From: an uncultured bacterium
GTDB taxonomy: Bacteria > Omnitrophota > Omnitrophia > Omnitrophales > Aquincolibacteriaceae
NCBI GenBank assembly: GCA_964373045.1
Contig: CAYJSI010000003.1
Location: 9,030-73,029 of the forward strand
Length of the DNA: 64,000 bases
Reading direction: 5' to 3'
Positions 39,690 through 64,000 of the stretch are shown one piece after another (the stretch's first letter is position 1; each line of letters starts with the position of its first letter). The notes below the pieces were generated by a model. It was not told the DNA's origin and did no database searches. It worked only from the letters and a program-made list of their open reading frames with translations. The position numbers were made by a program, and so were the translations under genes.

Positions 39690-39763
39690 GGGCCCGTAGC
39701 TCAGTGGTAGAGCAGGCGACTCATAATCGCTTGGTCGCACGTTCGATCCGTGCCGGGCCCACC
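39690..39763 (+). tRNA. tRNA-Met (anticodon CAU; elongator-type, but tRNA-Ile2/lysidine cannot be excluded)
   Basis: Manual cloverleaf. 7-bp acceptor GGGCCCG/CGGGCCC with a paired 1:72. D-arm GCTC-AGTGGTA-GAGC. Anticodon loop CTCATAA. T-arm GCACG-TTCGATC-CGTGC. Discriminator A. CC partly encoded. Confidence 0.9.
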
Positions 39764-41957: not shown

Positions 41958-42344
41958 TGGGATCTTCTTGGATGATCGCTCTGCATAATGTCGGCGGGCC
42001 TGCCTGCCGCAGGCAGGGAGGAAAGTCCGAGCTTCACAGGCAGCGTAGTGGGTAACACCCATCTCCGCCATGCAACCGACGGCGGACGGATTAGAGCCAC
42101 AGAGACGAGTCCAAGGCGAGCTAACTTCTCGCCCTTGGGGTGAAACGCGGCAATCTCTACGTGAAGAAAGGCTAAATAGGGTGAAGGGCCCTTCGGGGCG
42201 AGAGCGCCTGCTCTCTTTTCGTGCAAACGATTCCTTCATCGGGTCAGCCGCAAGCGGCATCGGGTAACCGATGTCCCAGATAGATGATCATCACCCCGCT
42301 CTTAAAAGGCGGGGGACAGAACTCGGCTTATAGAGAAGATCCCC
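41958..42344 (+). ncRNA. rnpB: RNase P RNA, bacterial type A
   Basis: P1 pairing GGGATCTTCT (41958-41967) with AGAAGATCCC (42334-42343). P4 strands GGGAGGAAAGTCCGAGCTTCACAGG and ACAGAACTCGGCTTAT. GTGGGTAACACCCATCTCC and GGGTGAAGGG conserved blocks. Length ~387 nt. Confidence 0.85.
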
Positions 42345-42473
42345 TTCAAAGACATTTTTCATTTGACAGAATCCCGCCTGTCGGATACACTTCTCACACT
42401 TTTGTACAGTTCATCCTTTTAAGTCGGTGCTGCGACATCGACAAGGGAGTCTTGATGAAACTAAAAAATCTAA

Positions 42474-49400: not shown

Positions 49401-49757
49401 GGATATCCTCTCGTGGCCACCAAGGGAACGGGCGAGGTGCTTCAAAGGCATGGCGTTCCTGCCGAAATCGTTTTAAAGATTGTGGAGGGACGTCCGAACG
49501 TCGCAGATCTTATCCGCAACCGCGAGATCGGTCTCATCATCAATACTCCGAGCGGAAAAGGGCCGGTCTTAGATGAAGTCAAGATCCGTTCGCTCGCCGT
49601 TTCCTTCAATATCTCCTGCATTACAACAATCAGCGCCGCAAAGGCCGCTACCGTGGGGCTTGAGGCTGTCCGGGGCAAGGGCCTCGGCGTCAAAGCCATT
49701 CAGGATTATCATCCATGTACGACCCAACCGTCACGATCGACGATAACCGCAAAGTAA
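46440..49757 (+). CDS. carB: Carbamoyl-phosphate synthase large subunit
   Basis: Duplicated ATP-grasp halves ([25 protein letters not shown]... and [25 protein letters not shown]...). MGS-like C-terminal domain. 1105 aa. Confidence 0.95.
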
Positions 49758-50485
49758 ACGGAAAATACTTCAAACTCATTTTCCGCTCGAAGCCTCTTTC
49801 CCGCAAGGTCGAGCCCGGCCAGTTCATGAATGTTCAGTTGAAAGACTCACTCGATCCTTTTTTAAGGCGGCCCTTCAGTTATTACCGTGTTCTGAGGAGT
49901 CAAATCGAAATTCTTTATGAAGTTCTGGGCCACGGCACAAGTATTCTCGCGGGTTTAAAAAAAGGAGACCCCTTAAAAGTTTTAGGACCTTTGGGAAAGC
50001 CTTTTGCCAAAAAAATTCCTAAAGGAAAAAAAAGGGTGCTTGTGGCCGGGGGGGTGGGGGTCCCGCCGCTTGTTTTTTTAGCTGAACGTATTCCGGCCGA
50101 TTACCTTCTGATCGGCACGAAATCCAAACAGGAAGTCCTTCCCAAAAAGGAGCTCTCAAAGGCCAAAGCCGAGATTCTTTACTCCACCAACGATGGCTCT
50201 TACGGAACCAAAGGTTTTGTCACGGCTTTGCTCGAAAAGATCATTAAAGAAAACGGCGCCGGGAATCTTTTCATTCAAACCTGCGGGCCGGATATCATGA
50301 TGCAGGCCGTGATCAAGATTGCGCGCCGTGAGGGGATTGACGGCGAGGCCTCGCTCGATGAAACCATGGCCTGCGGTGTCGGCGCTTGCCTGGGGTGCAT
50401 GGTGAAGACCCAAGATCGCGGCTGGGTGCCCTCCTGCACCGAAGGACCTGTGTTTTCGTTTGGTGAGTTAGACAATAGTCCATAG
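49715..50485 (+). CDS. pyrK: Dihydroorotate dehydrogenase electron-transfer subunit
   Basis: FAD-binding RRPFSY. 2Fe-2S cysteines [11 protein letters not shown]...C at the C-terminus. 43-nt overlap with carB. Its last codons and TAG stop (50483-50485) lie inside a heptamer-repeat array. Confidence 0.85.
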
Positions 50486-50499
50486 ACCATAGTCGATAG
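50477..50499 (+). repeat. Left heptamer array (GTCCATAG-ACCATAG-TCGATAG) bounding the inserted four-helix-bundle element
   Basis: agtccatagaccatagtcgatag. Same heptamer family as the right array 50870-50898 and as the two 117-nt repeats in the giant 3' ORF. Confidence 0.7.
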
Positions 50500-50513
50500 A
50501 AAAGGGCGAAAGC

Positions 50514-50865
50514 ATGGCTTTCAAATTTGAAAATTTAGAAGTTTGGAAAAAGGCTTTAGAGTTGAGCTTTCAAGTGCATCAACTGACTAGGACATTTCCA
50601 AAAGAAGAATTGTATGTATTGAGTTCACAAATCCAACGAGCAGCAGATTCTGCAGTATTGAATATCGCAGAAGGAAGTACAACGCAAAGCAATTCTGAGT
50701 TTAAGCAGTTTCTGAGGTATGCATTGCGTTCCACGGTTGAAGTGGTTGCCTGCCTTTATCTGGGGAAAAAGAAGAAACCTTATCGAACAAGTAGATTTTG
50801 ATCGTCTTTATGTTCAGGCAGAAGAAGTTGCCAAGATGATTCAAGGGTTGCGTAAATCTCTTTAG
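50514..50865 (+). pseudogene. Four-helix-bundle protein gene (TIGR02436 / 23S-rRNA-intervening-sequence-protein family) with a +1 frameshift in an A-run
   Basis: Frame 0 gives MAFKFENLEVWKKALELSFQVHQLTRTFPKEELYVLSSQIQRAADSAVLNIAEGSTTQSNSEFKQFLRYALRSTVEVVACLYLGKKKKPYRTSRF*. After ggggaaaaagaagaaa (~50763-50778) the +1 frame continues NLIEQVDFDRLYVQAEEVAKMIQGLRKSL*, which is the expected family C-terminus. Extra A in the homopolymer, or a sequencing error. Confidence 0.75.
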
Positions 50866-50869
50866 TTTG

Positions 50870-50898
50870 CTATGGACTATGGTCTATCGACTATGGAC
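50870..50898 (+). repeat. Right heptamer array (CTATGGA-CTATGGT-CTATCGA-CTATGGAC), inverted relative to the left array
   Basis: ctatggactatggtctatcgactatggac, immediately before the pyrD ATG (50904). Confidence 0.7.
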
Positions 50899-50903
50899 TC
50901 AAC

Positions 50904-51848
50904 ATGAAAACGGATCTCACGACCACGATCAAGAACCTGACATTTCGAAATCCGATGACGGTGGCCTCGGGGACCTTTGGAACAAAAGGTGAGTTCGAAA
51001 AAGTGGTGAATTATGGGAAATTAGGCGCCATCATCACAAAAACGATTACCGTCAAGCCGCGCGCTGGAAACCCCATGCCCCGTATTTGTGAAACCGCGGG
51101 CGGGATGCTCAATGCCATCGGCCTGCAAAATAAAGGCCTCGATGATTTTATCGAAAACAAAATCCCTTACTTTGCTAAAATCGATACGCCTTTGATCGTG
51201 AACATTGCCGGAGAAACGCTCAAAGATTTTAGAACGCTCACAAAAGCTCTCGATCGAGAAAAGCCGGTCGTAAAAGCGCTTGAGCTGAATCTCTCCTGCC
51301 CGAATGTGGAAAGCGGCGGTGTGAATTCCATGAAAAAGCGGGAGCGCATTCTGGATGTGATCAACACGGTTAAATCCGAAACGGATTTAACCGTGTTTGC
51401 CAAGCTTTCGCCGGAACTTGGAGACGTGGTTGAAATCGCAGGGGATGTCATCAAAGCCGGAGCCGACGGCCTTAGTTTGATCAATACCCTGAAAGGAATT
51501 GCCATTGATGTTCATAAGCGAGTTCCCCGGATTTCGAATATCACAGGAGGATTGAGCGGCCCTGCCATCAAACCCGTGGCGCTTCGTTACGTTTACGAAG
51601 TGAAAAAACATCACAAAGTGCCGGTGATTGCTTCCGGCGGGATCATGAATGCTCAGGATGCAGTCGAATTTCTCATTGCAGGAGCCGATCTCCTTGCGAT
51701 CGGGACTGCCAATTTCGTCAATCCACGCGCAACCCTCGATATTCTGGAGGGGATTCAGGATTATTGCAAAGAAAAGAAGATTTGCGTGATCGACGAGCTT
51801 CGCGGCACACTCAACGTGTCGCACGGTTTCCATGAAGGAGTGATTTAA
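50904..51848 (+). CDS. pyrD: Dihydroorotate dehydrogenase catalytic subunit (class 1B)
   Basis: FRNPMTVASGTFG, NLSCPN, GGI..AQDAVEFLIAGA motifs. Confidence 0.9.
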   Translation: MKTDLTTTIKNLTFRNPMTVASGTFGTKGEFEKVVNYGKLGAIITKTITVKPRAGNPMPRICETAGGMLNAIGLQNKGLDDFIENKIPYFAKIDTPLIVNIAGETLKDFRTLTKALDREKPVVKALELNLSCPNVESGGVNSMKKRERILDVINTVKSETDLTVFAKLSPELGDVVEIAGDVIKAGADGLSLINTLKGIAIDVHKRVPRISNITGGLSGPAIKPVALRYVYEVKKHHKVPVIASGGIMNAQDAVEFLIAGADLLAIGTANFVNPRATLDILEGIQDYCKEKKICVIDELRGTLNVSHGFHEGVI

Positions 51849-52609
51849 TGACAAAGGTGCCAGAATCTCATTCTCAGAACCCGTCACCTGTCACCCGTGA
51901 CCCGAAACCTCAGTCTAAACTAATCGTTGCACTCGATACGGCAAGTCTTGAAGTTGCGAAAGAACTCATCGAGAAATTGAAGGGCGTCGTTTCTTTTTAT
52001 AAAATTGGTTTTGAACTTTTTACCGCACACGGCTGGAAGGCCGTGGAACTTGTGAAGCGCTCGGGCGCCCGCGTTTTTCTCGACCTCAAATTCCATGATA
52101 TTCCGAATACCGTGGCCAAAACGGCGTCTGTGATTGCCGCTCACGAGATTGACATGTTCAATGTGCATGCCCTCGGAGGCTTTGAGATGATGGAAGCGGC
52201 ACGCAAAGCGGTGGACGATGCCGTGAAGGGGAAAAAGAAAAAGCCCATTCTTTTAGCGGTAACGGTTCTTACAAGTCACAGCGAGGAAGATCTTGAAGCG
52301 ATGGGCATTGAAGGCAATCTCAAGGACGAAGTGCTGACCCTCGCCTGGCTTGCTAAAAAAGCCGGAATGGACGGCGTCGTCAGCTCTCCCCAGGAGATCA
52401 CGCTCCTACGCAATGAATTCCCGAAAGACTTCACGATTGTGACGCCTGGGATTCGCCCTGCTTACACCGCAAAAGGGGATCAAAAACGCACCTTCGGACC
52501 CAAAGAGGCCTTTGTCGCCGGGGCCGATTTTATTGTCGTGGGCCGCCCCATTACAGCCGCTCCGGACCCCCGCAGCGAGGCCATAGCGATCCAAAGCACA
52601 CTGAAGTAG
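51848..52609 (+). CDS. pyrF: Orotidine-5'-phosphate decarboxylase
   Basis: LIVALD...FYKIGFELF...VFLDLKFHDIPNTV motifs. Overlaps the pyrD stop. Confidence 0.9.
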   Translation: MTKVPESHSQNPSPVTRDPKPQSKLIVALDTASLEVAKELIEKLKGVVSFYKIGFELFTAHGWKAVELVKRSGARVFLDLKFHDIPNTVAKTASVIAAHEIDMFNVHALGGFEMMEAARKAVDDAVKGKKKKPILLAVTVLTSHSEEDLEAMGIEGNLKDEVLTLAWLAKKAGMDGVVSSPQEITLLRNEFPKDFTIVTPGIRPAYTAKGDQKRTFGPKEAFVAGADFIVVGRPITAAPDPRSEAIAIQSTLK

Positions 52610-52809: not shown

Positions 52810-52907
52810 TTTTTCGATTTTACCATTCCACTAAAATTTCATTTCGTTAAAGGAAGCGCCGAACAAGGGGGATTGTGTTAGCCTATCTTAAGCCGATTAA
52901 AAAAGAG

Positions 52908-55900
52908 ATGAAAAAACAAATAAAATCCCTCACGGCCTCCCTCACCGTCCTCTGTTTTCTCGTCACTCAAATCGCCTCGGGCGCACCCTTCCTCTTCGCC
53001 TCACCCTATCGTGCCGAAATGGCTGCACAAAGGGAATTGATTCCTTTTCCCACCTTTGGGCTCAGCGTCCCTTCCGATCTGGGCGTGATCGATTATCTTC
53101 ATCGGGGTTCCGGCCCGGTTCTTCTGCATATTCAAACCGCCCACGGCCACTACGACGCTCAGAAAAAAATCGAAGCCCTACTTTACTATCTCAAGAAGGC
53201 CTACGGCATTCAGGATCTTTTCATCGAAGGGACGGCGGTCAAAATCCAGCCGGAACTTCTGCGTTTTTTCCCTGATGACAAGGAGCTCAATCGTGAAGTT
53301 CTTGACGGGCTCACGCGCCGGGCCTTTGTGAAGGGCTCTGAACTTTTTGCCGTGGACGAACCCGAAGCAAATCTCTATGGCATTGAGGAGCTCAAGTCCT
53401 ATCGCGTCAACAAATCCTCCTTTCGAGAGGTGCTCCGCGAGCAGGAGAAAACTGAGCGCTGGGTCAAAGAAATGGAAATGCAGATGGAGCGGCTCACCGG
53501 GCCTTATTTGAATAAGGAACTTCGAGCTTTTCTTAAGCGGATTGAGGACCACGAGGCCAATCGAATCGGCATGATGGACTGGCTCTCGATTCTAAAAGAA
53601 GAGGCCGAGAAACGCCTTGAGATCCGTCTGGCCGACCCCGCCTTTCAGCTTGACTGGCCTATGTTGGTGCGGGTCTTTAAACTCCGCGAACTCGATTCAA
53701 AATTGGATCCTCAGATTTACCCGAAAGAACGGGCCGAATTCCTTCGCTCGATCCGCCGTTTTCTCCCGGGCGCCCTCGCCCTTGAAATTCAAAAGGAGCT
53801 CATGCTCCCCCCCTCCGCTCAATCCCTTTCAGACCCTGGGACGAGTGAGCTCTTCCTTAAAATGGTGGAGCACCTTCCGCCGGGATTCCGTTATGACGCC
53901 TTTCCTCAGGTGAAATATTTCATCGGTCATTTAATTTTACAAAGTGAGCTCAAGGCCGAACGGCTTGTGAAGGAAGTGGAACAGGTTCAAGAGAAGATCC
54001 AAGCCAAGCTCGCCAAAACCCGTGAAGAAAAAGAACTCCTAGTACTTCTTCATGAGAAAAAACTTCTCACACGGCTTCTTCACCTTGAATTGACGCCGGG
54101 GGATTATGAAAAAATACGGGTCCCAGGTGCCGGGTCTCAGGTGCCAGGCTCTGTTCTTTCTGACACCCGACACCCGACACCCGTTACCCGTCACCTTCGT
54201 CCATCTTCCGTCGTTTCCCGTTTCCTTGCCGTGAACCGCGATCAGCGCGTTCGCAACGTCTCCTTCCGCCACTTAGAAGAAATCGACCGGCTTTACGAAA
54301 AGGCGCTTGAGTTTTACCGAGGCGCCAAAGAGCGTGATCAGTTCATGATAGACAATATCCTTCGGCTTATTCGGGATGAAAAGATTTCAAAAGCGGTTGT
54401 GATCACCGGAGGTTTCCACACCAAACCCTTCCAGGATTTTTTCACGAAAGAAAATTACCACTACGCCTCCATTTCTCCCAAGATTACCGAGATCGAACCC
54501 CGCGATGCCTATCTCCACGCCATTCTCCAGGATTCACCACTCACCAAGGCCTCCACACTTGAGGTGGACTCCATCGCAGTTCCAAAGGAGCAGCTTGTTC
54601 TTCACGGCACAAACTTTGAAATAGTGAATGGCATCGTGATGGGGGAACTCGAAACAGCGGCACGCAAAAAAGGAAAATGGAATGATTCAACCATTCAGGC
54701 TTTTGATCAAAGTGCTTATGCCAGGATAAACGGCGTACGGCTCAACCAAAATCTTTCTTTAGTTCCTCAAGCCCTTTCCCGGGCTGAGGTACGGAATATT
54801 GAGACAGAAGCAATTGAAGATGTTCAAGATTTTTATCAACTTCATTTTTTGGCTATGTTTTACGGCCATGAGTTTATACACCCTCAAGGGGATTCTCCGA
54901 GTCCGGCGAGTCTTGAAGATCAGGTTGACGCGTATAACTTTTGGATTACGCATTTTGAGCAGCGTAATTTATTCAACGGCACTCTTGCCGAAACCACTGC
55001 GGGGAGCAGAATAAGCGAAGAGCAATTTAATGCCCTCAAGGAATTTCTCCTGCGGACTTATCCTCGTCAAGGTAGTTTTCCTTCGTTGATTCACCGGTAT
55101 CTTATCGGTTTGGGTCAAAATCGTCTGGAGGAGGTGCTTGCGTTCATTGGCCAGGCAACGGTTCTGGAACAGCCCGAGGGTCGTCCCGGATTTTGGCGTG
55201 TCAATGGCGACTTAAAAAGTCAGAATAAAGCCATTGTTATTTGGGATGAAGGTACATCCATTCATTTCCGTGTGTTTTCGAGAGGGTCAGAACGCGAGAG
55301 TGATCAGGAATTTTTCTTTATTAATCCCGCTCATTTAGATGCTATTCGCAATGCGATAGAAGCAGCTTCTAGAGGAACCGTCCGAATTCCCCGCTCTGAG
55401 GTGAGGAAATTGGGCGAGGAGCAGGAGACGAGGCGGCCGATCAACCTGAGGGATGGCGGCGGTTTATATAGTACTGATAAATGGCTGCAATCCCGATCAT
55501 TACAGAGATTATGGTCATTGCTCCTAAGACTTCAGCCATGGTTTAACGCCCTCCTTTGGGGGGATAAAGAACCCACGCGACAACAAATCCGAGCGGTGGT
55601 TAATGCGAGCGCCGGCGGGAAAGATAATCCAGTAAGAGAATCCCGCCCATTATGGCCATCACAAAAAGAGCTGCACCATACAGCATCCAAATGGGGTGCA
55701 TCTCATCCTCCTTTTTTTGAATTCTTACGGTTAGCATTCAAACGAATAAATAAAAATAATCAGCCCACCCAGCATACAGCAACCGCCGAAAAAAATACTA
55801 GCATTAAATCCATCTCCTCTCAACAAGGGAATTACCAGCCCCGCCAAAATGACGGTATAAGTACTGACGCAAATTTTGACCAAATTTTCTCGGCGCTTGG

Positions 55901-58900
55901 CCGTCAATCTCAGCATCTCTTTTCCCTCATTAAAACCTTAAGTAAGCGTATTCTGAATTTTGTTATAAGTCAATTATTATTTTTAGTTAAATCAAATTTT
56001 AATTTACTGTCTTCGGGAGTGTGGGGGATGAGGACCCCCTTCCTTACCCCCGGCCTCTTACTCCCGGCCCCTGTTTCTTCTCGCTTGGATGCGCGGCGAA
56101 GTGAAGTGCGAACGGAAATTTTGGGGGTTCGGGCTTTAAGTTCGTTGGACCGTAGTGATATTGAGGCAGGACGTAAGGGCGGCGAGATCTTTTTTCTCAG
56201 CCAGCTTCCTCGTCAACAGAGGCCGACGGATCAACAACTCATCAATCAAATCATCTGGGGGTGGCCCGCCTTCCGGGAAAACATTCTTCCTGAAATTCAT
56301 GAGAGGTTTTTAGAGCTCAATCGGTTATTGTGGTCTAACAGAAGTGTCCTTGCAAAGGATCCCGAGTTCCGAGCGTTTCTTGGATATTTTGCGGAGCGCC
56401 TGGCAAGAAGGAATTTTCTCCAAACCCCCCTTGAAGAAATATCCGGTCGAACCGAAAAGCAAGTTCTCAGAGCTTATCATCAATTCGTAACCATCAAAGA
56501 TCGCATCCTTTCGCGCTCAGAAATGCGAACCTCGAGGCAGCTTCAAGGAGAAATTGATTATTTTTTCAGAATGAAGGAAGAAGCCCGGTCTCGTGCGGAT
56601 TTGATGGAACGCATGCTGAGTGAAATTAAAATTATCCTCGAGGGAGGACGCGGGTTAAAACAGGCAGGGCGAACTCAAGAAGCGCTGGATGTCTTAGAAA
56701 TTCTTCGCAGCTACGCCGATAGACTTACGAAGTTTGCCGAAAAAATTGGGCCTGAGAAAAAATACTTTCCTCGTGGAGTCTCTCGGGAAGAGTTGCAAAA
56801 ATGGCGCGCTGAAGAGGAAGCGAGGGACGGGAATATTTTACCCGAAGCAAGCGCCGCCGATTTAAAAGCCCGATCCGCAGATCTCAAAAAACGAATCGAT
56901 GCCTTTCTTCCTCAATTCATAGAGGCCTACCGCCCGGATAATGAGCGGAAACTCGACCGTTTGAATCATCAGGTTCTGGCCCTTCATAAAGCCCGAATCA
57001 AAGTCCAGCTCTTGCAGGCCCGTCATTACCTTTTGAAATCCTCTCCCAACGAAGGAGTTCTCTCTAACCTTTTGAATTCGCTCAGGTCAAGCTACATGCG
57101 GCTGCAACAGGAATATTGGTGGCGCTGGAAGCGCTCAGTCCGTAGCGCTGAGATTCAACAAGTTGCCGTTGTCGGTCACGAAGGCCGTACTGTTCGAACC
57201 TATGATTATTCCCAATTTAAGCTGAGGGTGAAGACTGCAAAAGATGCAGACGAGGATTCCGAAAATGTTTTAATCCAAAATCGGTGGAAATTAATCGTGC
57301 AACCCGATGGTTCAAAAGTGCATCAACTCGTTCCGACCGAAATTCATTTTTCAAGTTTAGATACAACGCTTCGGGCTTCCTTGAATACGCTCATCAGCCA
57401 GGAAGAAGATTACGGACAGGTCTTGTTTAGAGTGACGGCACTTGAATACGTTGTTGAGATCCTCAAAGAAGCCGTCAAGAACGGGACAGAACGTATTTCG
57501 AATTTCCAACAGGAAATTATCAATGCGAATTTAAGAGATGTTTTAGAAGGAAAAGGCGGACTTCGTGCCGGGATCACACCGCAAAAGGAAAATGCAACGG
57601 CCAAAGTCGAGGAAGCGATTGTGCATATGAAGGCCGGAAAATTTTCCAAGGCTAGTGAAGTGCTTGAAGACGCGATCAAAAGACTTCGGAGCCGATTAAC
57701 CGATATCGAGGGGAAAAATAAGGGGATACGCCATATCACGGATTATGTTGCCCATGAACTTCGAAAAGAAGAAACCGGCAGGGCGATTCGGGAAGTTAAA
57801 ACATTAGTGGCCCAGAATGATTTTCCATCAGCCTCAGAACTTTTAACGCAGCTCTACCAAGCCAATTATCGACCGATCGCCTCAAGGCACGGACAATATG
57901 AGTCTCTTAAGCGCGAAGTTTTAGCGCTCAAAATCAATATTACTCAATTGCAACGCTTTCACGGAAAACCATCGGAAGTAGACTTAAGAAAATCCATTTT
58001 CGAAAACATTCGCCGCATTTCAAATATGACGGGTGTTCGTTCCGAGCTGCGGCGGCAGACCAAGCACAGAGCAAAGAGCATGCCTGCCCGCCGAAGCGAA
58101 GCTGCAGGCGGGGAGCGTAGAGTTAACCTTATGCCCTCTGCCAGCCCTCTGCCCGTTTCCCGCTCCAAGTCGCGTGAACGCTCAGAGGTAAGAGTCACTT
58201 CGCCTGATTTTGAGGCCAAAGCGAAGCGTCATGCTGCTGAGTATGCAGTCATGACTACGCACAGATCCTCGGACGATGAAAGTTTTCTCCCCGATTGGCT
58301 GAAGAAACTAGGGGATGTTTTTTTGGTTCGAGATCGAATGCCGCGAAGAGAAGATAAGCAATTAGCAGCGGAGAGGATTAACAGAGTACCGCGTCTATCA
58401 TCCTCCGGTAAGTTCCTCGATCTCCGTAAACCCGCATCGGATTATCTGGATGAGATAGCTTCCCGTCTTTTATTCGGGGATAACACGCCTCCTCAAACCC
58501 GCGAAGGATGGCAGGGCTTGATTTTGGACGTTGCCGCTCCAACGCTCGTCCGTCAAACGGCTTTTGCGGCGTTCGAAAAAGCAAATCCCGATTTATTTCC
58601 TCCGTCCGTGCGCATTGAAATATCGGTCCGGGATATCAATAAAGTTCCAGCCGACGGCATGATTGTGGAAACCGATTCTCATCTTCTCGGAACCCCGGGA
58701 ATGTTCCTTCGCTCGCTCGAGCTTTCTCCGGAAGGCGATGTTCCGAACATTTCCGACTGGCGCGATCAATCTAAGAATCATGAACCGGGATCAGTTGTGA
58801 TTTCTCCGTCTTTAGCTCAAGCGAAGGAGAAAACCATTGCCGGATGGAAATATGCGCTTGGCGCCATTGTGCGTTCCACGGATGAACAGCCTCTTGATGA

Positions 58901-61900
58901 AAAGATTTATAAAGCCGCGCTCAGAAAAGCACTGGAACAAGCCGACCGTTTAGGATTGGAAACCGTCACGCTGAATCATCCCGCAGCTTTGACTTGGGCC
59001 ACTACCGTGATCCGGCAATTTTCAAAGCAAAAGCGTCTTCATTTAAAATCTGTAAACATTGTTTTTTTTACGGAAAAAGATTACAACACCTCCCTTCAAT
59101 TCACTTCCCGTTCCGAGGCGAGAGAAAGGCAGTCGATAGTCGATAGTCGACGGTCCATAGCAAACCCAGTAGTTAATCCATGGGCTATAGACTCTCTTCT
59201 ATTGACTAACCCCCGCTCCGAGCTGCGACGGCCTGAGAAAAACGAAGGCCGCGCAGCCGTCCCGCGTTCAGAAGCGCGGGGCGAGGTGCGGAAGAAGAAT
59301 CAAATCAATTTTGATTTGGAACGTGAGAAGCGGAAAATACAAGAAACAAAAGAACAGTTCGGCTCGACTTTACCTTGGATGGATAAGCAGAATTTTATTC
59401 TGGATTTCTTGGTCCGGGATGCGCTTCCTATTTTTGGAAATGTTTTTCAAGGTGGCCGCCGCGCGGCACTAAGGAGAATTAACGAGGGAAGCAAAAATAA
59501 AGCAGACACGTCTCCCGTTACGAACTACGACCCTTTAATTGAAGGAAAATTTCGGGATGCGGTTGATGGGGCCTTCCCTGGTCACGGTGTCTTGGGGGAA
59601 GAACTTGCTGATCGGAACAGGCTTCGTCCTCAAACGTTTACGTCAGATCCGATTGATGGAACAGTGGACTGGAAAATACTAGGTTCGCACTTTGGAAACC
59701 TGAGCGGATATTACGACAGCATTCATACCAACGGTGAGCCGCAAGTTGCAGTCGGGTATTGGCCTCTTCTGGATATGGATGGTTCGGGCTCCATGCTTTT
59801 TGTCGGCCGCGAAGACCAAGATGGAATTCTTGTTAATGGAAAGAGAGTTGAGCGTGCCGCGATCGAAGCCATCAATCAAAGCCGCACGGTCATTATTGGA
59901 GGCAGAAGCAAGCCCAAGACGCGGCAGCTTTTAAAAGAATATTTTGAAAAACGAGGCATGATGGTGAAATTTACAAGCGCCGGCGGAGGAGAGTCCGCTG
60001 AGATGATGCTTCGTGGCACGGCACGGTTTTATATCCATCTCAATCCCGCGGCAGTCGATGCGCCTATCGGCACTTTTTTTGCTAAAAAACTTGGATTGAA
60101 AGCCACAGATCGCGAAGGCAATCCCGTAAAGGTTCCTTTTAACTATCTTCAAAATGGACTCTATTTTCACCCTTATATCATCGGATCAAACGAATCGCAC
60201 CAGGAAGCGCTAGAAGCCTTTGCCGCCATCGGAGAACCGGAAGAAGACGTCCAATGGACCCCCCTTGAAAGAAAAGCGGCTCCGGCTGATTTGATTGATC
60301 ATTTAACCCAGGAGTCGGCTCAAAGAGCGCGCCGGCTGCTTCCTCAGGATCCGGGAGTTTCCAAGAAAAAAGAAATTAAAAAGCGAGAGCTCAAACAACT
60401 TTTAGAAAGAACGGTAGCTCTAGTCGCCGAGACCGCCAGCTTGGACATGGAACGGCTGCTGAACAGTCTCATTGAAGGAGTCACGTTCAAAAAAGTTATT
60501 CCCCAGGTGGTTAAACGGGCGGTCAGCGCGTACTCCAAGAAAAAAGCGTTAGGGCAGTCGGTGATTGTTGCTCAGGCCGGAACTCCGGGAGCAGGGAAAT
60601 CCGTTGGTGGAAAATATTTAGCCGAAGCCATTGCTCGGGCCATTCAAAAGAAGTTTCCTAAAGAAAAAGTCATCGTTCCTGTTTTGAAAGAAGATAACAT
60701 TGCTTTGATCCAAAGAAATCTTCGCGGCAAAGGCTTGGCCGGAAAATTTAAATGGGCTGAACGTGACCTTGCTCTTGCGGATCTTGTCAGCGGCCAATCG
60801 GTACTTAAAGGCATCTTTGATGATACGAGCGGCGGAAACGTCCTTCTTTCTCTTGACCCGGAAGGCAATGTGGTCATTCATAACGGCAATCGGACCGTGA
60901 CCATTCGGCATAAAGCCGGCAGCGAGGTTTTTTCTTACGACGAAGTTTTGAGTCGTCCAAACGAACCTCCATTGAATCTAACAGAGGAGCAAAAACGCAA
61001 TCATATCAACATTCAGGATAGCGGAATTTTTGAGTGCGGTTCCACAAAAGTACGCATTCGAATCGAAGGAAAAGGTACAAGTGCACGGCTTATTGTTGGT
61101 TTTCAAAGTTTAGAAATCGTATCGCTCAATGAATACGGTGAACTGGAAATGCTGACACAGCTAACCGATCATGAGATTGAACCGGTTACCGGAGGCAGGG
61201 CAACCGTAAAGGCGCGCTCTCCTTTAGGAGATCTCCCTTCCTATTTAAATGAAGCGTCGGTTTTTCAGATCGAAACCGTTCAGAATCCTCAAAAAGTCGA
61301 GGACCTCCGTAAAGCTAAAGAAGCCAGAGAATTTGTCCCTTCCGGTACACCCCTTGTCTTTGACGGCCAGTTTGCATTTTTAAGGCTTAATGAAAAAGGT
61401 GGTTTTTCTCCGGATGTTCATCTCTATGACGTTACGCTGAATTATCGGGCGAATCGAATGACGCGCTGGGCAAGAGATCTTAAGCGAAGTCGTGAGCGCG
61501 GAAGAACAACGGCAGAAGCCAATGAAAACGCTCAACGGTTTTACGAAAGAGCTTTTACGGAAGAAGAACGCTCGAATCGGGCCAACGCGGAATTCGGGAT
61601 TCAGGTCAATACGACAGACCTTGCCGAATCTCTTGAACGTTTGATCCTCTATCATTTTGAACAGCAGTCCGCCTACAGTGAAATCTGGGCTCAGATGGGC
61701 ATTGATCCCAAAACCATTGATGAAGAGCAGCGCCGGGAAAATGATCTTCCCGAAACTTTGAAACTGTTGGCTCTCTGGAAAAATTTGAAATTCAAGCGAA
61801 CATTAAACGGAACCATCGACGAGTATGAAATCGGAGATTTTATCATCCGCGTAGAGAGGAGCGCTCCGTCACTTTCTAAAATCCATCGGGGACAAAATCA

Positions 61901-64000
61901 AAAACTTAAAGAGCGCGGTAATGAAGTGATTGCAAGTAACTCACTGATCGATGTGCGGCAAGCGGGAAAAATTTTGGGAAAACCCATTCGTTTTACGGGC
62001 ATCAAGGGTGGTCAGCTGGGATGGATTTCCGTATGGAACAGAGGCGAGCTTTTGGGAGACCGGCTCAACAAATTAGCAGCTCAGGGAGATGCTGAAAGTC
62101 TGAATGAGGGAATAAAATGGATTGATCATTTTGTTGATCAGGAAGCAGCGCTTCACAAGCGCGGAATTGTGGATGAAGATCCGGATATGATGGAACAGCG
62201 CCGGCTTTTACCGATTCGCGGAGAAGTGAGCGTGGCTGTGGCAAGTCCCGAATCCAACCTTCGGATGGGCGGGGAAGCCCTTCGGCTTTATCGCGAGAAG
62301 TATCTTCCTGCCGCGGATCAAACTAATATCTATCTGCGTCAGGAAAAGTTGGATAAAATTCCCGCAGTATTTCGTGACTATTATAAGAAACGTGTTTCGA
62401 AGAAGTTGCTTCCGCATTCTGTCTCGGATGAAACTTCTCGAAATGAAGCATGGGAAGCTTTTTTCAAGGATGTTTTTGAAACAGCGCTTCCAAATTCCCT
62501 TCGAACTGTACAAAAAGATCTGCCCGCCGTCTTACAAACCGTTTCAAAACGAAAAGATGTCATGCGGGAACACAAAATTCCGCTTCGTAATTGGGGAGTA
62601 GAACACCCCGCCATTTACCACAAGCGGATTGAACATATGCGCGGGTATGTCACTCGCTATTTCATTCGAAGCGCCAAACGACAATATTTCCCCGCCATTC
62701 AAAGCAAATCGGCGACTCCCCAGCTTTTGTGGGTTGCCTTGATGCGCCAAACTTATCCGGATAAATATGCGGATTTTTATCAAATGATCCGGGTTTTAGC
62801 AGATGAAATGTTAGACAAACCCTTTCTCTTAGACGCGACCCGCTACCCAGCTTACAAACAGAATGCGGCGGTGCGCAGCCTTATTAGCGAAAAACTTGCC
62901 GAACCTTACCGTCAGGCGGGAATTGAACCTCCGCCGATTGACGCTGCCGCATGGGCATCCTTTGATTATTTTCTGAATCAAACACGGTCTCTTGCCGCCC
63001 GCTCAGAAGTGCGGAATGCGACATGGATTCCAAGTCCCGATGGCGAAGGACCTGGCCATGTGGTATCAGGCTCAGTTCCTGAGTCGGGGGGAGTGCGCAC
63101 TCCCGGCGAAGATGCCGTTCCTGCTCCTTCGCACGAAACGCAATTATGGCCGGAAGAAAGAAAATCTAAATCCGGACCCGGACACCCTGTGTCTGTTGCA
63201 CCTCTCATTCCAAGTCCTAAAGGACCCTTGGATACCGGTGGCGGCATTGTCTCCAAAGAAGATCTCTCCTCTTCCCGGGCTGAGGTAAGAGACGAGGCGA
63301 GAGAAAGGCAGTCGATAGTCGATAGTCGACGGTCCATGGAAAACCCAGTAGTTAATCCATGGGCTATAGACTCTCTTCTATTGACTAACCCCCGCTCCGA
63401 GCTGCGACGGAATGCCCGCTCGGCAGGGATGACACGCAGAAATTTCCTGATAGGGAGTGGGGCTACGCTTGCACTCACGGGGTTTGCGGCCCCGCAGTCT
63501 GTAGTGAAGTTCGCAGCGGCCAGTTCGCCGCCCAACCAGAAAAAATCTGCAGAGACGGATCAAGAAATCGAAAAGAAATTCATCGAGTGGCGCAAGGCCG
63601 CAGAAAAAGCCTTTCTCGAAAGATTTCCCTTGGATGAAAAAATCGAGAAAAAACAAATGCTGACTGATGACGAAAAGAAACAGTATCTGGAGCTCAGAAA
63701 GAAAACCCGTGAACTCAGTCTCCTGATGATGTACGCCTCCTACCGTCTCCAGGAAAGAGAAGATAAACGGCTTGAAAATAGAATCCTGGAGGATCTGACG
63801 AATTCTCTCGATTTAAAATCAAAGAACAAGCAAAAGCGGTATTACACGGCTGCCACTCTCGAGCAACTGGGGTATTTTTATCACAGTATAAAATTGCGGG
63901 ATTTTCTCATCCGTGTCGCTCAGGATACCAAGCTGGATGCCCTCTATCGTGATAGAGCTGTCGATGGGCTCGCTCTCATGATCGCGACTTATTGGAACAC
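52908..64000 (+). CDS. Giant modular secreted protein, 5' portion (more than 3,697 codons; continues beyond the window). Segments: Sec signal; TraB/GumN/Tiki-like module; low-complexity linkers; macro-like domain; inositol-monophosphatase-fold domain; P-loop kinase-like domain; internal Tat-type signal peptide.
   Basis: Every codon in the frame (positions congruent to 0 mod 3) from 52851 to 64000 was checked by hand and none is TAA, TAG or TGA. The nearest upstream stop is TAA 52848-52850. First ATG is 52908. N-terminus MKKQIKSLTASLTVLCFLVTQIASGA. Motifs seen: LLHIQTAHG / VITGGFHTKPF (TraB-like), VRDINKVPADGMIVETDSHLLGTPG..LGLETVTLNHPAALTWA (macro-like), GVLGEELADRN + DPIDGT (IMPase fold), VIVAQAGTPGAGKS (Walker A). 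Not in the supplied track, presumably because it has no in-window stop. Confidence 0.8.
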   Translation, partial: MKKQIKSLTASLTVLCFLVTQIASGAPFLFASPYRAEMAAQRELIPFPTFGLSVPSDLGVIDYLHRGSGPVLLHIQTAHGHYDAQKKIEALLYYLKKAYGIQDLFIEGTAVKIQPELLRFFPDDKELNREVLDGLTRRAFVKGSELFAVDEPEANLYGIEELKSYRVNKSSFREVLREQEKTERWVKEMEMQMERLTGPYLNKELRAFLKRIEDHEANRIGMMDWLSILKEEAEKRLEIRLADPAFQLDWPMLVRVFKLRELDSKLDPQIYPKERAEFLRSIRRFLPGALALEIQKELMLPPSAQSLSDPGTSELFLKMVEHLPPGFRYDAFPQVKYFIGHLILQSELKAERLVKEVEQVQEKIQAKLAKTREEKELLVLLHEKKLLTRLLHLELTPGDYEKIRVPGAGSQVPGSVLSDTRHPTPVTRHLRPSSVVSRFLAVNRDQRVRNVSFRHLEEIDRLYEKALEFYRGAKERDQFMIDNILRLIRDEKISKAVVITGGFHTKPFQDFFTKENYHYASISPKITEIEPRDAYLHAILQDSPLTKASTLEVDSIAVPKEQLVLHGTNFEIVNGIVMGELETAARKKGKWNDSTIQAFDQSAYARINGVRLNQNLSLVPQALSRAEVRNIETEAIEDVQDFYQLHFLAMFYGHEFIHPQGDSPSPASLEDQVDAYNFWITHFEQRNLFNGTLAETTAGSRISEEQFNALKEFLLRTYPRQGSFPSLIHRYLIGLGQNRLEEVLAFIGQATVLEQPEGRPGFWRVNGDLKSQNKAIVIWDEGTSIHFRVFSRGSERESDQEFFFINPAHLDAIRNAIEAASRGTVRIPRSEVRKLGEEQETRRPINLRDGGGLYSTDKWLQSRSLQRLWSLLLRLQPWFNALLWGDKEPTRQQIRAVVNASAGGKDNPVRESRPLWPSQKELHHTASKWGASHPPFFEFLRLAFKRINKNNQPTQHTATAEKNTSIKSISSQQGNYQPRQNDGISTDANFDQIFSALGRQSQHLFSLIKTLSKRILNFVISQLLFLVKSNFNLLSSGVWGMRTPFLTPGLLLPAPVSSRLDARRSEVRTEILGVRALSSLDRSDIEAGRKGGEIFFLSQLPRQQRPTDQQLINQIIWGWPAFRENILPEIHERFLELNRLLWSNRSVLAKDPEFRAFLGYFAERLARRNFLQTPLEEISGRTEKQVLRAYHQFVTIKDRILSRSEMRTSRQLQGEIDYFFRMKEEARSRADLMERMLSEIKIILEGGRGLKQAGRTQEALDVLEILRSYADRLTKFAEKIGPEKKYFPRGVSREELQKWRAEEEARDGNILPEASAADLKARSADLKKRIDAFLPQFIEAYRPDNERKLDRLNHQVLALHKARIKVQLLQARHYLLKSSPNEGVLSNLLNSLRSSYMRLQQEYWWRWKRSVRSAEIQQVAVVGHEGRTVRTYDYSQFKLRVKTAKDADEDSENVLIQNRWKLIVQPDGSKVHQLVPTEIHFSSLDTTLRASLNTLISQEEDYGQVLFRVTALEYVVEILKEAVKNGTERISNFQQEIINANLRDVLEGKGGLRAGITPQKENATAKVEEAIVHMKAGKFSKASEVLEDAIKRLRSRLTDIEGKNKGIRHITDYVAHELRKEETGRAIREVKTLVAQNDFPSASELLTQLYQANYRPIASRHGQYESLKREVLALKINITQLQRFHGKPSEVDLRKSIFENIRRISNMTGVRSELRRQTKHRAKSMPARRSEAAGGERRVNLMPSASPLPVSRSKSRERSEVRVTSPDFEAKAKRHAAEYAVMTTHRSSDDESFLPDWLKKLGDVFLVRDRMPRREDKQLAAERINRVPRLSSSGKFLDLRKPASDYLDEIASRLLFGDNTPPQTREGWQGLILDVAAPTLVRQTAFAAFEKANPDLFPPSVRIEISVRDINKVPADGMIVETDSHLLGTPGMFLRSLELSPEGDVPNISDWRDQSKNHEPGSVVISPSLAQAKEKTIAGWKYALGAIVRSTDEQPLDEKIYKAALRKALEQADRLGLETVTLNHPAALTWATTVIRQFSKQKRLHLKSVNIVFFTEKDYNTSLQFTSRSEARERQSIVDSRRSIANPVVNPWAIDSLLLTNPRSELRRPEKNEGRAAVPRSEARGEVRKKNQINFDLEREKRKIQETKEQFGSTLPWMDKQNFILDFLVRDALPIFGNVFQGGRRAALRRINEGSKNKADTSPVTNYDPLIEGKFRDAVDGAFPGHGVLGEELADRNRLRPQTFTSDPIDGTVDWKILGSHFGNLSGYYDSIHTNGEPQVAVGYWPLLDMDGSGSMLFVGREDQDGILVNGKRVERAAIEAINQSRTVIIGGRSKPKTRQLLKEYFEKRGMMVKFTSAGGGESAEMMLRGTARFYIHLNPAAVDAPIGTFFAKKLGLKATDREGNPVKVPFNYLQNGLYFHPYIIGSNESHQEALEAFAAIGEPEEDVQWTPLERKAAPADLIDHLTQESAQRARRLLPQDPGVSKKKEIKKRELKQLLERTVALVAETASLDMERLLNSLIEGVTFKKVIPQVVKRAVSAYSKKKALGQSVIVAQAGTPGAGKSVGGKYLAEAIARAIQKKFPKEKVIVPVLKEDNIALIQRNLRGKGLAGKFKWAERDLALADLVSGQSVLKGIFDDTSGGNVLLSLDPEGNVVIHNGNRTVTIRHKAGSEVFSYDEVLSRPNEPPLNLTEEQKRNHINIQDSGIFECGSTKVRIRIEGKGTSARLIVGFQSLEIVSLNEYGELEMLTQLTDHEIEPVTGGRATVKARSPLGDLPSYLNEASVFQIETVQNPQKVEDLRKAKEAREFVPSGTPLVFDGQFAFLRLNEKGGFSPDVHLYDVTLNYRANRMTRWARDLKRSRERGRTTAEANENAQRFYERAFTEEERSNRANAEFGIQVNTTDLAESLERLILYHFEQQSAYSEIWAQMGIDPKTIDEEQRRENDLPETLKLLALWKNLKFKRTLNGTIDEYEIGDFIIRVERSAPSLSKIHRGQNQKLKERGNEVIASNSLIDVRQAGKILGKPIRFTGIKGGQLGWISVWNRGELLGDRLNKLAAQGDAESLNEGIKWIDHFVDQEAALHKRGIVDEDPDMMEQRRLLPIRGEVSVAVASPESNLRMGGEALRLYREKYLPAADQTNIYLRQEKLDKIPAVFRDYYKKRVSKKLLPHSVSDETSRNEAWEAFFKDVFETALPNSLRTVQKDLPAVLQTVSKRKDVMREHKIPLRNWGVEHPAIYHKRIEHMRGYVTRYFIRSAKRQYFPAIQSKSATPQLLWVALMRQTYPDKYADFYQMIRVLADEMLDKPFLLDATRYPAYKQNAAVRSLISEKLAEPYRQAGIEPPPIDAAAWASFDYFLNQTRSLAARSEVRNATWIPSPDGEGPGHVVSGSVPESGGVRTPGEDAVPAPSHETQLWPEERKSKSGPGHPVSVAPLIPSPKGPLDTGGGIVSKEDLSSSRAEVRDEARERQSIVDSRRSMENPVVNPWAIDSLLLTNPRSELRRNARSAGMTRRNFLIGSGATLALTGFAAPQSVVKFAAASSPPNQKKSAETDQEIEKKFIEWRKAAEKAFLERFPLDEKIEKKQMLTDDEKKQYLELRKKTRELSLLMMYASYRLQEREDKRLENRILEDLTNSLDLKSKNKQKRYYTAATLEQLGYFYHSIKLRDFLIRVAQDTKLDALYRDRAVDGLALMIATYWN
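59115..59231 (+). repeat. 117-nt in-frame repeat element, copy 1 (encodes EARERQSIVDSRRSIANPVVNPWAIDSLLLTNPRSELRR)
   Basis: 115/117 identical to copy 2. Contains a direct heptamer array TCGATAG-TCGATAG-TCGACGG-TCCATAG and inverted CTATAGA/CTATTGA units. Flanking sequence is unrelated between copies. Confidence 0.85.
63294..63410 (+). repeat. 117-nt in-frame repeat element, copy 2
   Basis: Same as copy 1 apart from two substitutions (ccatagc to ccatgga). Ends 20 nt before the internal Tat-like signal (ATG 63430). Confidence 0.85.

Follow-up and report, generated by a model that had tools for sequence, protein, structure and literature searches.

The junction between pyrK and pyrD in the pyrimidine operon of an uncultured Omnitrophota bacterium very likely harbors an inserted gene cassette of the kind found in 23S rRNA as intervening sequences (IVSs). 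The junction lies in a stretch of 64,000 nucleotides (GenBank assembly GCA_964373045.1, contig CAYJSI010000003.1, positions 9,030 to 73,029, forward strand), hereafter the window, and the cassette is composed of a gene for a four-helix-bundle (4HB) protein of the PF05635/TIGR02436 family between two inverted arrays of 7-nt units (Table 1). The whole is probably best described as an IVS-type gene cassette, decaying in the window copy and co-transcribed with the operon, whose arrays form an RNase III-sensitive stem.

Architecture of the Cassette

Both arrays exhibit a period of 7 in a tandem-repeat scan (TRF), with 4.6 and 4.3 copies, respectively (about 4.5 each). The left array harbors four G[T/A]C-phased units and presents TAG in all three frames, and the right array is the reverse complement of GTCCATA GTCGATA GACCATA GTCCATA. 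With at least three tandem 7-nt units at a gene junction, the arrays belong to the heptamer simple-sequence repeats (SSRs). The double-heptamer pattern TAGNCNATAGNCNA occurs 7 times in the window versus 0.03 expected. The two arms (50470–50503 and 50866–50899) are 34 nt each and 85% complementary, in agreement with a preliminary description of this DNA in which inverted heptamer arrays were said to bound the gene. The GC content of the cassette is 0.39 versus 0.49–0.51 for pyrK, pyrD, and the whole window.

The pyrK stop codon is the third TAG of the left array, in frame (50483–50485), and comparison with the empty sites L106 and L107 suggests that the last few pyrK codons probably lie inside the array as well. 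The last base of the right array is 50898/50899, with the pyrD ATG 5 nt further on, at 50904; these coordinates agree with the earlier placement of both gene ends. There is one cassette in the 64-kb window. Its termini and those of two cassettes in a related genome (L086, GCA_964460795.1) read 5′-TAGTC...GACTA-3′.

The Four-Helix-Bundle Gene and Its Frameshift

The 95-aa open reading frame (ORF) of the window matches both PF05635 (7e-28, 97.4 bits, cutoff 33.8; profile positions 1–82 of 106) and TIGR02436 (2.4e-24, 85.7 bits, cutoff 24), placing the gene in the family named in the preliminary description, with both scores above the curated cutoffs. When frame 0 is joined to the +1 frame (ending in ..NLIEQVDFDRLYVQAEEVAKMIQGLRKSL, stop at 50863–50865), the match extends to positions 1–106 of 106 in PF05635 (7.5e-33, 113.4 bits) and 1–108 of 109 in TIGR02436 (7.5e-31, 106.6 bits). 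The +1 frame therefore restores a family-typical C terminus, as had been claimed.

The extra base lies within a run of G4 (50762–50765) and A5 (50766–50770). Removal of one G or one A yields LYLGKRRNLIEQVDFDR, which forms a gapless alignment with LYLGKKRKLLNQKDFER of the homologue P0009. Intact homologues are about 117 aa long (range ~115–130 aa), and none of those listed is split like the window copy, which the frameshift cuts at 95 aa, short of the ~115–120 aa of an intact ORF. The exception is P0001, which is the same locus with an identical ORF in two other assemblies. Two independent public assemblies, ERR3478686 and ERR4904390, contain the frameshifted sequence with 100% identity over 491 nt, which excludes a one-off assembly error. 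Thus, the +1 frameshift proposed earlier is reproducible, being present in two independent assemblies and absent from intact homologues, although the extra base may be in the G-run instead of the A-run. Judged by its sequence, the window copy is a pseudogene of the family and a decaying member of the cassette class. Programmed frameshifting is unlikely: the other homologues are all unsplit, and known +1 recoding features appear to be missing from the site.

The 4HB protein exhibits sequence similarity to the PDB entries 2gsc (2e-11) and 2rld (0.002), each of which contains five chains. In PHROGs, it matches only phrog_3206 (3.7e-6), the Avd protein of diversity-generating retroelements (DGRs); the match to PF22296 is weak, and the PADLOC defense-system profiles yield zero matches.

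Empty Sites and Other Occupants in Relatives

The closest named PyrD relatives are Candidatus Omnitrophica/Omnitrophota metagenome-assembled genomes. In the three closest PyrD relatives (82, 79, and 77% identity), pyrK and pyrD either overlap by 4 nt (ATGA; GCA_016196565.1 and GCA_016196555.1), the pyrD start codon sharing bases with the pyrK stop, or are separated by 4 nt (a JGI contig). Since the genes are overlapping or near-contiguous in the closest relatives, the cassette is interpreted as an insertion, and the three empty sites uphold the earlier claim to this effect. In more distant metagenome relatives (L101, L093, L096, L099, L100, and L092), the junction is empty or nearly so, with gaps of 0–48 nt. 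No target-site duplication borders the three Omnitrophota cassettes checked (the window cassette and the two of L086), and no transposase is found in or adjoining the window cassette.

The syntenic operon of L086 has acquired cassettes independently at two other junctions. A full 4HB cassette lies between carA and carB (70% protein identity). Between pyrC and carA (6120–6262) there is an internally deleted cassette, in which the two arrays enclose no more than the first 19 codons (MAFKFEDLVVWQKVLEL..) of the 4HB gene; such a remnant directly attests to the decay of full cassettes into heptamer hairpins that lack a gene. Both junctions are empty in the window.

The pyrK–pyrD junction of L086 (12060–12470) is occupied by a 99-aa GIY-YIG gene (PF01541, 1.6e-16) with its own inverted repeats, GTCATCCTGAGCGG...GAAGGATCT / AGATCCTTC...TCAGGATGAC, representing a second kind of mini-gene cassette. 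The same junction contains a gene-less solo hairpin of a different heptamer, (AGCACCR)n, in L098, other inverted-repeat mini-elements in L094 and L095, and two ordinary genes in L091 and L097. On the basis of these varied occupants, the pyrK–pyrD junction is a recurrent landing place.

A Family-Wide Repeat–Gene–Repeat Design

A genome scan with the reconstructed (frameshift-corrected) protein as the query identified 80 loci with 56–68% identity, mostly in Bacteroidota but also in Planctomycetota and Nitrospirota/Thermodesulfovibrionales, with four or more phyla represented. Their 70-nt flanks harbor GTCCATA, GTCGATA, GACCATA, GTCAATA, and GTCCACA units upstream and the reverse complements of these downstream. 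Compared to 400 control placements within those loci, the flanks have a median period-7 autocorrelation of 6 upstream and 7 downstream versus 3 in the controls, and an inverted complementarity between the two sides of 11 versus 6 (Mann–Whitney p = 6e-30, 7e-28, and 3e-33 for the two period-7 scores and the inverted complementarity, respectively). On at least one measure, 81% of the loci are above the control 95th percentile. A lag scan has its sole peak at 7 (9.9 vs 3.3–4.8). The modal count of G[T/A]C-phased units is four per side, with the consensus G-T/a-C-S-A-Y-R, and the median best stem per arm is 28 nt. The window cassette, with its 4+4 units, is therefore a canonical member of the family.

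Distant homologues (30–40% identity) on cyanobacterial and Riemerella plasmids are also flanked by inverted period-7 arrays of unlike sequences, with heptamers such as TAGGGAG, AGTCAGG, GGGTGTA, AGGGAAG, and GGTTCAA. Among 12 distant plasmid loci, clear arrays are found in seven, atypical ones in four, and none in one.

Two functional interpretations of the arrays were rejected. (GTCCATA)n provides TAG in the left array and an ATG without stops in the right array, yet a universal three-frame stop/start device fails for several other heptamer types. Likewise, a correspondence between the number of units and a protein pentamer is unsupported, as the modal count is 4 rather than 5.

Relation to 23S rRNA Intervening Sequences

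IVSs have been known in 23S rRNA since about 1990. One of them was recovered by the homology searches: in Azospirillum lipoferum 4B plasmid AZO_p2 (L105, 3430–3900), a 4HB ORF that lacks a CDS annotation lies inside a 23S rRNA gene. This rRNA is complete according to Rfam (LSU model 1–2925, locus 2283–5481), and the IVS is located in the helix-45 region. Its left array reads GACGGAT GACAGAG GACGGAG GACAGAA and its complementary right array ATCCGTC CTCTGTC TTCTGTC ATCCGTC, corresponding to four to five heptamers per inverted array. The Coxiella IVS (428–444 nt) harbors three GACAGAT and one GACAGAA just 5′ of the S23p ATG, inside a 28-bp terminal stem; RNase III cleaves at the first repeat, the repeat number differs among strains, and the ORF is decaying and apparently untranslated (PMC4990558).

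A stem of about four heptamers (28 bp) is the common feature derived here from Coxiella and Azospirillum, and the window cassette has it, with 4+4 units and terminal inverted repeats (TIRs) that are predicted to fold into a long stem around the ORF. No rRNA is detected in the window by Rfam, and the cassette is not in helix 25 or 45 of 23S rRNA. The shared gene family, size, orientation, and 4 × 7 inverted-array stem support the analogy with rRNA IVSs, which is closer than the preliminary description had proposed.

Genomic Contexts and Evolution

In 68 of 82 loci (83% sense), the genes on both sides run in the same direction as the 4HB gene. The downstream start codon is usually a few nucleotides after, or within, the right arm. 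One context is the interior of metH, with 24 orthologous loci (L038, 1955–6053; e.g., L009 and L024). Here, the gene is split exactly at the linker between the homocysteine S-methyltransferase and the pterin-binding domains, such that the order in L038 is PF02574, cassette, PF00809, B12-binding domains (PF02607 and PF02310), and PF02965, and the new C and N termini of the two halves are encoded by the arrays. Another 23 cassettes are located between a carbon–nitrogen hydrolase gene and an agmatine deiminase-type (PAD_porph) gene. Other contexts are the pyr operon (window and L086) and ftsI–murE. In Nostoc edaphicum pNe_5 (L087, 1390–1900), (TAGGGAG)n / (TCCCTAC)n arrays enclose a 4HB gene that sits between nrdB and nrdA in the minority, antisense orientation.

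Cassettes are also found in CRISPR loci. The 4HB gene is located between cas10/cmr2 and cmr3 in a plasmid of Picosynechococcus PCC 7003 (L113) and between cas6 and cas4 in Anabaena sp. 90 pANA02 (L114). In L025 (417–2528), a cassette occupies a spacer position of a 23-repeat CRISPR array, in the sense direction of the repeats, which are 37 nt long and end in ATTGAAAC. In L028 (170–724), the CRISPR repeat and the left array are duplicated 482 nt apart. A statistical association of “23S rRNA IVP” with CRISPR has been reported (PMC10910872). The presence of cassettes in cas operons and in a CRISPR array offers a simple account of the link between PF05635 and CRISPR, and insertion in such loci may be a trivial explanation for the reported association.

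When cassette DNA and flanks were compared all against all, the ORF identity of orthologous pairs rose and fell with that of their flanks. The dN/dS ratio is 0.02–0.10 in 11 of 12 orthologous pairs and 0.42 in the least diverged one. Taken together, these data indicate that the cassettes are long-lived and that the protein is normally functional. Recent transposition was considered and rejected, as high ORF identity always coincides with homologous flanks and hence reflects orthology; the most similar cassettes at non-orthologous sites are at most 87% identical, and the comparison reveals neither near-identical multi-copy cassettes nor recent copies. At the hydrolase/PAD_porph locus, the arms are of the GTCCATA/GTCGATG type in Mucilaginibacter-type and of the GGAAGAC/GAAAGTC type in Chitinophagaceae-type lineages, on both sides; the arms therefore change in concert, with the period and the inverted layout being kept. 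Carriage by phages was likewise dismissed, as a scan of viral contigs gave only 32%-identical partial matches.

Predicted Stem and Proposed Mechanism

The arrays form the outermost helix in both the minimum free energy (MFE) and the centroid RNA folds (ΔG of −126 kcal/mol, z = −2.76), and the arm duplex is predicted at −35.2 kcal/mol compared to −10.7 ± 3.2 kcal/mol for shuffled arms. These folds are in line with the long RNA stem suggested in the preliminary description. On the + strand, a consensus scan of the cassette detects neither a promoter-like nor a terminator-like site.

It is proposed that a promoterless PF05635/TIGR02436 gene with a purine-rich ribosome-binding stretch, placed between two inverted arrays of four 7-nt units, entered an Omnitrophota pyrimidine operon in the sense orientation, at the junction of pyrK and pyrD, which had overlapped until then. 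The left array now supplies the pyrK stop, and the right array abuts the pyrD start. Devoid of its own promoter and terminator, the cassette would be transcribed together with the operon, and the arrays would pair in the RNA to form a helix of ~28–34 bp. This helix is probably a substrate of RNase III, whose action on rRNA IVSs has been demonstrated; the cut would separate the pyrK and pyrD messages and release the 4HB stem-loop. Such cleavage would uncouple pyrK from pyrD, which in relatives are translationally coupled via the ATGA overlap. By analogy with rRNA IVSs, there is about an even chance that the pyr mRNA is processed in an RNase III-type manner. In intact cassettes, the 4HB protein would be made and selectively maintained, while the window copy would be a dead, decaying resident. 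The absence of target-site duplications, arrays adjoining arrays, and the internally deleted derivatives favor array-based recombination or repair as the means of spread over classical DDE transposition.

Alternative Explanations

Several observations weigh against an IVS-type cassette with an RNA stem. The 80 loci collapse to 25 genomic contexts, three being large orthologous groups; the events are therefore not independent, and the flank statistics reflect conservation as much as recurrence. About one-fifth of the loci are without clear arrays, and array arrangements are non-canonical in L015, L016, L018, and L021. Among these arrangements (L015, 298–344 and 2921–2974; L018 and L021, 2919–2992), ftsI itself is positioned between an L-type and an R-type array, and elsewhere the left array of a cassette has a right-type array immediately next to it; the latter suggests clustering of, or recombination between, arrays. 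With respect to the stem, ~16% of arm positions are mismatched, and the mismatches exhibit no G:U bias (G:U-compatible 35 in sense vs 47 in antisense, p = 0.22, 45 loci). The complementarity thus does not single out an RNA helix, and the arrays may equally well act at the DNA level. Lastly, the Bacteroidota cassettes are vertically inherited at shared loci across divergences from genus to family scale, and strong purifying selection acts on their protein, which is explained by a module that benefits the host or has a regulatory role at least as well as by a purely selfish element.

One alternative, possible although doubtful, is a DNA-level mobile element in which the arrays are TIRs made of iterated sites for a recombinase or transposase acting in trans, or for a 4HB oligomer, with the RNA stem as a by-product. 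Inverted arrays display one motif symmetrically on duplex DNA, and the missing G:U bias is in keeping with this, as is the turnover of units within the arms, where motif and period are conserved rather than exact pairing. The presence/absence polymorphism among related genomes, the deletion derivative resembling a MITE (miniature inverted-repeat transposable element), and two 98% identical gene-less heptamer-bearing repeats in the window argue in the same direction. However, the three Omnitrophota cassettes have no target-site duplication, no transposase is present in or beside the cassette, near-identical multi-copy cassettes are not found, and an 83% sense bias is unexpected from DNA transposition alone. 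In addition, no catalytic motif is known in the 117-aa helical bundle. The conservation of orthologous cassettes across genera (metH, hydrolase/PAD_porph, and ftsI–murE), with ORF identity tracking that of the flanks, brings up a domesticated post-transcriptional module, kept by the host, in which the stem and the 4HB protein tune expression or stability of the flanking genes. The low dN/dS ratios, the proximity of the downstream start to the right arm, and the concerted change of the two arms are consistent with it. Nevertheless, this explanation is rather unlikely: the window copy persists despite its frameshift, in Coxiella the ORF is decaying and seems not to be translated (PMC4990558), the closest relatives thrive with no cassette, and cassettes also occur in rRNA and in a CRISPR array, contexts in which regulating a downstream ORF plays no part.

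The homology to DGR Avd (phrog_3206, 3.7e-6, with PF22296 weak; PMC10053308) raises the idea of a retro-mobile element, in which RNA released by RNase III is reverse-transcribed with the 4HB protein as an Avd-like cofactor, as in DGRs, and the cDNA integrates in transcribed regions. Sense-oriented residence in transcribed units (rRNA, pre-crRNA, and operons) and the lack of target-site duplications would be in keeping with such a pathway, but it is improbable, given that there is no reverse transcriptase adjoining the window cassette or the inspected loci, no template/variable repeat pair, no recent burst of copies, and no close relative on viral contigs. An ordinary small gene that by chance lies among heptamer microsatellites, with a frameshift that is programmed or an assembly error, has a very slight probability and is largely refuted. 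In some genomes, heptamer SSRs are plentiful (PMC4692102, PMC4679880), other period-7 arrays are present in the window, and the frameshift is in a homopolymer run; yet arrays of matching polarity and unit number flank homologues in several phyla, the sites are empty in relatives, the sequence is identical in three assemblies, and, among the homologues listed (~115–130 aa), none is truncated in this way except P0001, that is, this locus. The seeming lack of known +1 recoding signals at the site also speaks against it.

Beyond the IVS-type cassette in this operon, a broader proposal can be put forward tentatively, with the odds somewhat against it as a whole. The 4HB cassettes would form a phylum-spanning class of transposase-less elements, of which rRNA IVSs are the rRNA subset and whose hosts are cut-tolerant transcripts (rRNA, pre-crRNA, operon junctions, and domain linkers, e.g., in metH). 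A pentameric Avd-like protein would recognize ~4–5 heptamers and serve as the factor by which an element ensures its own maintenance or mobility, and the intergenic heptamers of cyanobacteria (short tandemly repeated repetitive sequences, STRR), Xanthomonas, and others would be footprints or derivatives of such cassettes.

Features of the Window

The coordinates of the cassette and the flanking pyr genes are listed in Table 1. The best NCBIfam match of pyrK is the dihydroorotate dehydrogenase electron-transfer subunit, with a score under the curated cutoff.

Table 1. Coordinates of the cassette and the neighboring genes in the window
Feature	Position	Strand	Evidence or content
pyrK, dihydroorotate dehydrogenase electron-transfer subunit	49715–50485	+	PF10418 8.3e-13
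Left heptamer array	50469–50500	+	TAGACAA TAGTCCA TAGACCA TAGTCGA TAGA
4HB gene, 5′ part, frame 0, 95-aa ORF	50514–50801	+	PF05635 and TIGR02436 matches
G4A5 homopolymer run with a single extra base (+1 frameshift)	50762–50770	+	
4HB gene, 3′ part, +1 frame (GKRRNLIEQVDFDRLYVQAEEVAKMIQGLRKSL, then stop)	50761–50865	+	joined protein covers full profiles
Right heptamer array	50870–50899	+	CTATGGA CTATGGT CTATCGA CTATGGA CT
Whole cassette, ~431 nt, GC 0.39	50469–50899	+	absent from orthologous junction in closest relatives
pyrD	50904–51848	+	PF01180 5e-73; NF005574 372 bits (cutoff 269)
pyrF	51848–52609	+	Pfam/NCBIfam

A 118-nt gene-less repeat with sharp borders is present twice on the + strand (59114–59231 and 63294–63411), with 98% identity between the copies. 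It contains a heptamer array (AGTCGAT ×3 and GGTCCAT) and, downstream of this, an array that is partly complementary to it, and its RNA fold is not significant (z = −1.2). Both copies are read through in frame by a giant ORF, the third unit having CGG where TAG would fall. Tentatively, these repeats may be gene-less, cassette-derived hairpins.

The giant ORF (52851 to 63998, at least 3716 aa) runs off the right edge of the window, and another (2–7417, 2471 aa) enters from the left edge. The syntenic gene after pyrF in L086 encodes 10543 aa, and giant genes reportedly occur in Omnitrophota. Period-7 arrays of GTCACCC/GACACCC are also found in coding sequence, at the 5′ end of the pyrF ORF (51879–51904) and in the giant ORF (54160–54195). 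The pyr operon is closely preceded by a bacterial class A RNase P RNA (41960–42346, 184.7 bits); a tRNA is located at 39690–39761.

Significance

IVSs with S23p ORFs and their excision by RNase III, a large PF05635/TIGR02436 family outside rRNA, and abundant intergenic heptamers are already known. In the full-text literature searched, which leaves out most subscription journals, no report was found that links non-rRNA PF05635/S23p genes to flanking inverted arrays of about four heptamers, that equates non-rRNA 4HB cassettes with the rRNA-IVS architecture, or that relates heptamer repeats to this gene family. The window element is an IVS-type cassette resident in an mRNA operon, and the family-level generalization is the part of real interest. 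The origin and spread of 23S rRNA IVSs, the role of the S23p ORF, and the STRR-type heptamers are still unexplained, and a single architecture ties together rRNA IVSs, the Avd-related PF05635/TIGR02436 family, and heptamer arrays. The same architecture has also colonized housekeeping and cas operons as well as a CRISPR array, and it splits the protein-coding metH. For genome annotation, the consequence is that the arrays alter the ends of the genes next to them. Cleavage of mRNA by RNase III, binding of arrays by a 4HB ring, and uncoupling of operons or gene fission all become testable in culturable carriers, among them Mucilaginibacter, Algoriphagus, Ekhidna lutea, and Nostoc punctiforme, whose cassettes are located in metH, at the hydrolase/PAD_porph locus, or on plasmids.

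Comparison with Known Systems

The 4HB protein is homologous to the bundle of Avd from DGRs, whose solved relatives are pentameric (2gsc and 2rld). However, the window cassette stands alone between the housekeeping genes pyrK and pyrD, with no reverse transcriptase or template/variable repeats; the only repeats in its vicinity are the heptamer arrays.

Intergenic heptamers have been described as STRR in cyanobacteria, as GGGAATC in Xanthomonas (70–75 convergent pairs), and as TAACTGA in Beggiatoa and Microcystis (PMC4692102, PMC4679880). They resemble the cassette arrays in being short tandem arrays of 7-nt units at gene junctions, often right before start codons, and, in Xanthomonas, in forming inverted pairs (PMC4692102, PMC4679880). 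In contrast to the cassette arrays, which are the two ends of a gene cassette, they are described as gene-less microsatellites of unexplained origin, and the terms “S23” and “four helix” are absent from the two papers. On the cyanobacterial plasmids, heptamer arrays directly flank 4HB genes.

MITEs and repetitive extragenic palindromes/bacterial interspersed mosaic elements (REP-BIME) share with the cassette the TIRs, small size, intergenic location, and internally deleted derivatives (L086, 6120–6262, and possibly 59114–59231 in the window). The cassette differs from these in that it has no target-site duplication or known cognate transposase, its termini are tandem heptamers, and, at full length, it encodes a non-enzymatic helical protein under purifying selection. 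Integron cassettes likewise contain a promoterless single sense ORF that depends on upstream transcription, together with a hairpin-forming repeat. Unlike these, the window cassette lacks attC/attI and an integrase, has repeats at both ends, and belongs to a family scattered in housekeeping operons instead of being gathered into one array.

The closest parallel is provided by the 23S rRNA IVSs with S23p/PF05635 ORFs (Coxiella burnetii, Leptospira, and Azospirillum), which RNase III excises. The host of these IVSs is helix 45 of 23S rRNA, whereas that of the window cassette is a polycistronic mRNA, in which no ribosome scaffold would hold the halves after cleavage; the heptamers are of the GACAGAT type in the former and of the GTCCATA type in the latter. 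In all other respects compared, the two coincide: the protein family, the size (~430 nt; 428–444 nt in Coxiella), the sense orientation in the host transcript, the TIRs of about four tandem heptamers with a 28-bp stem, and the often decaying ORF.

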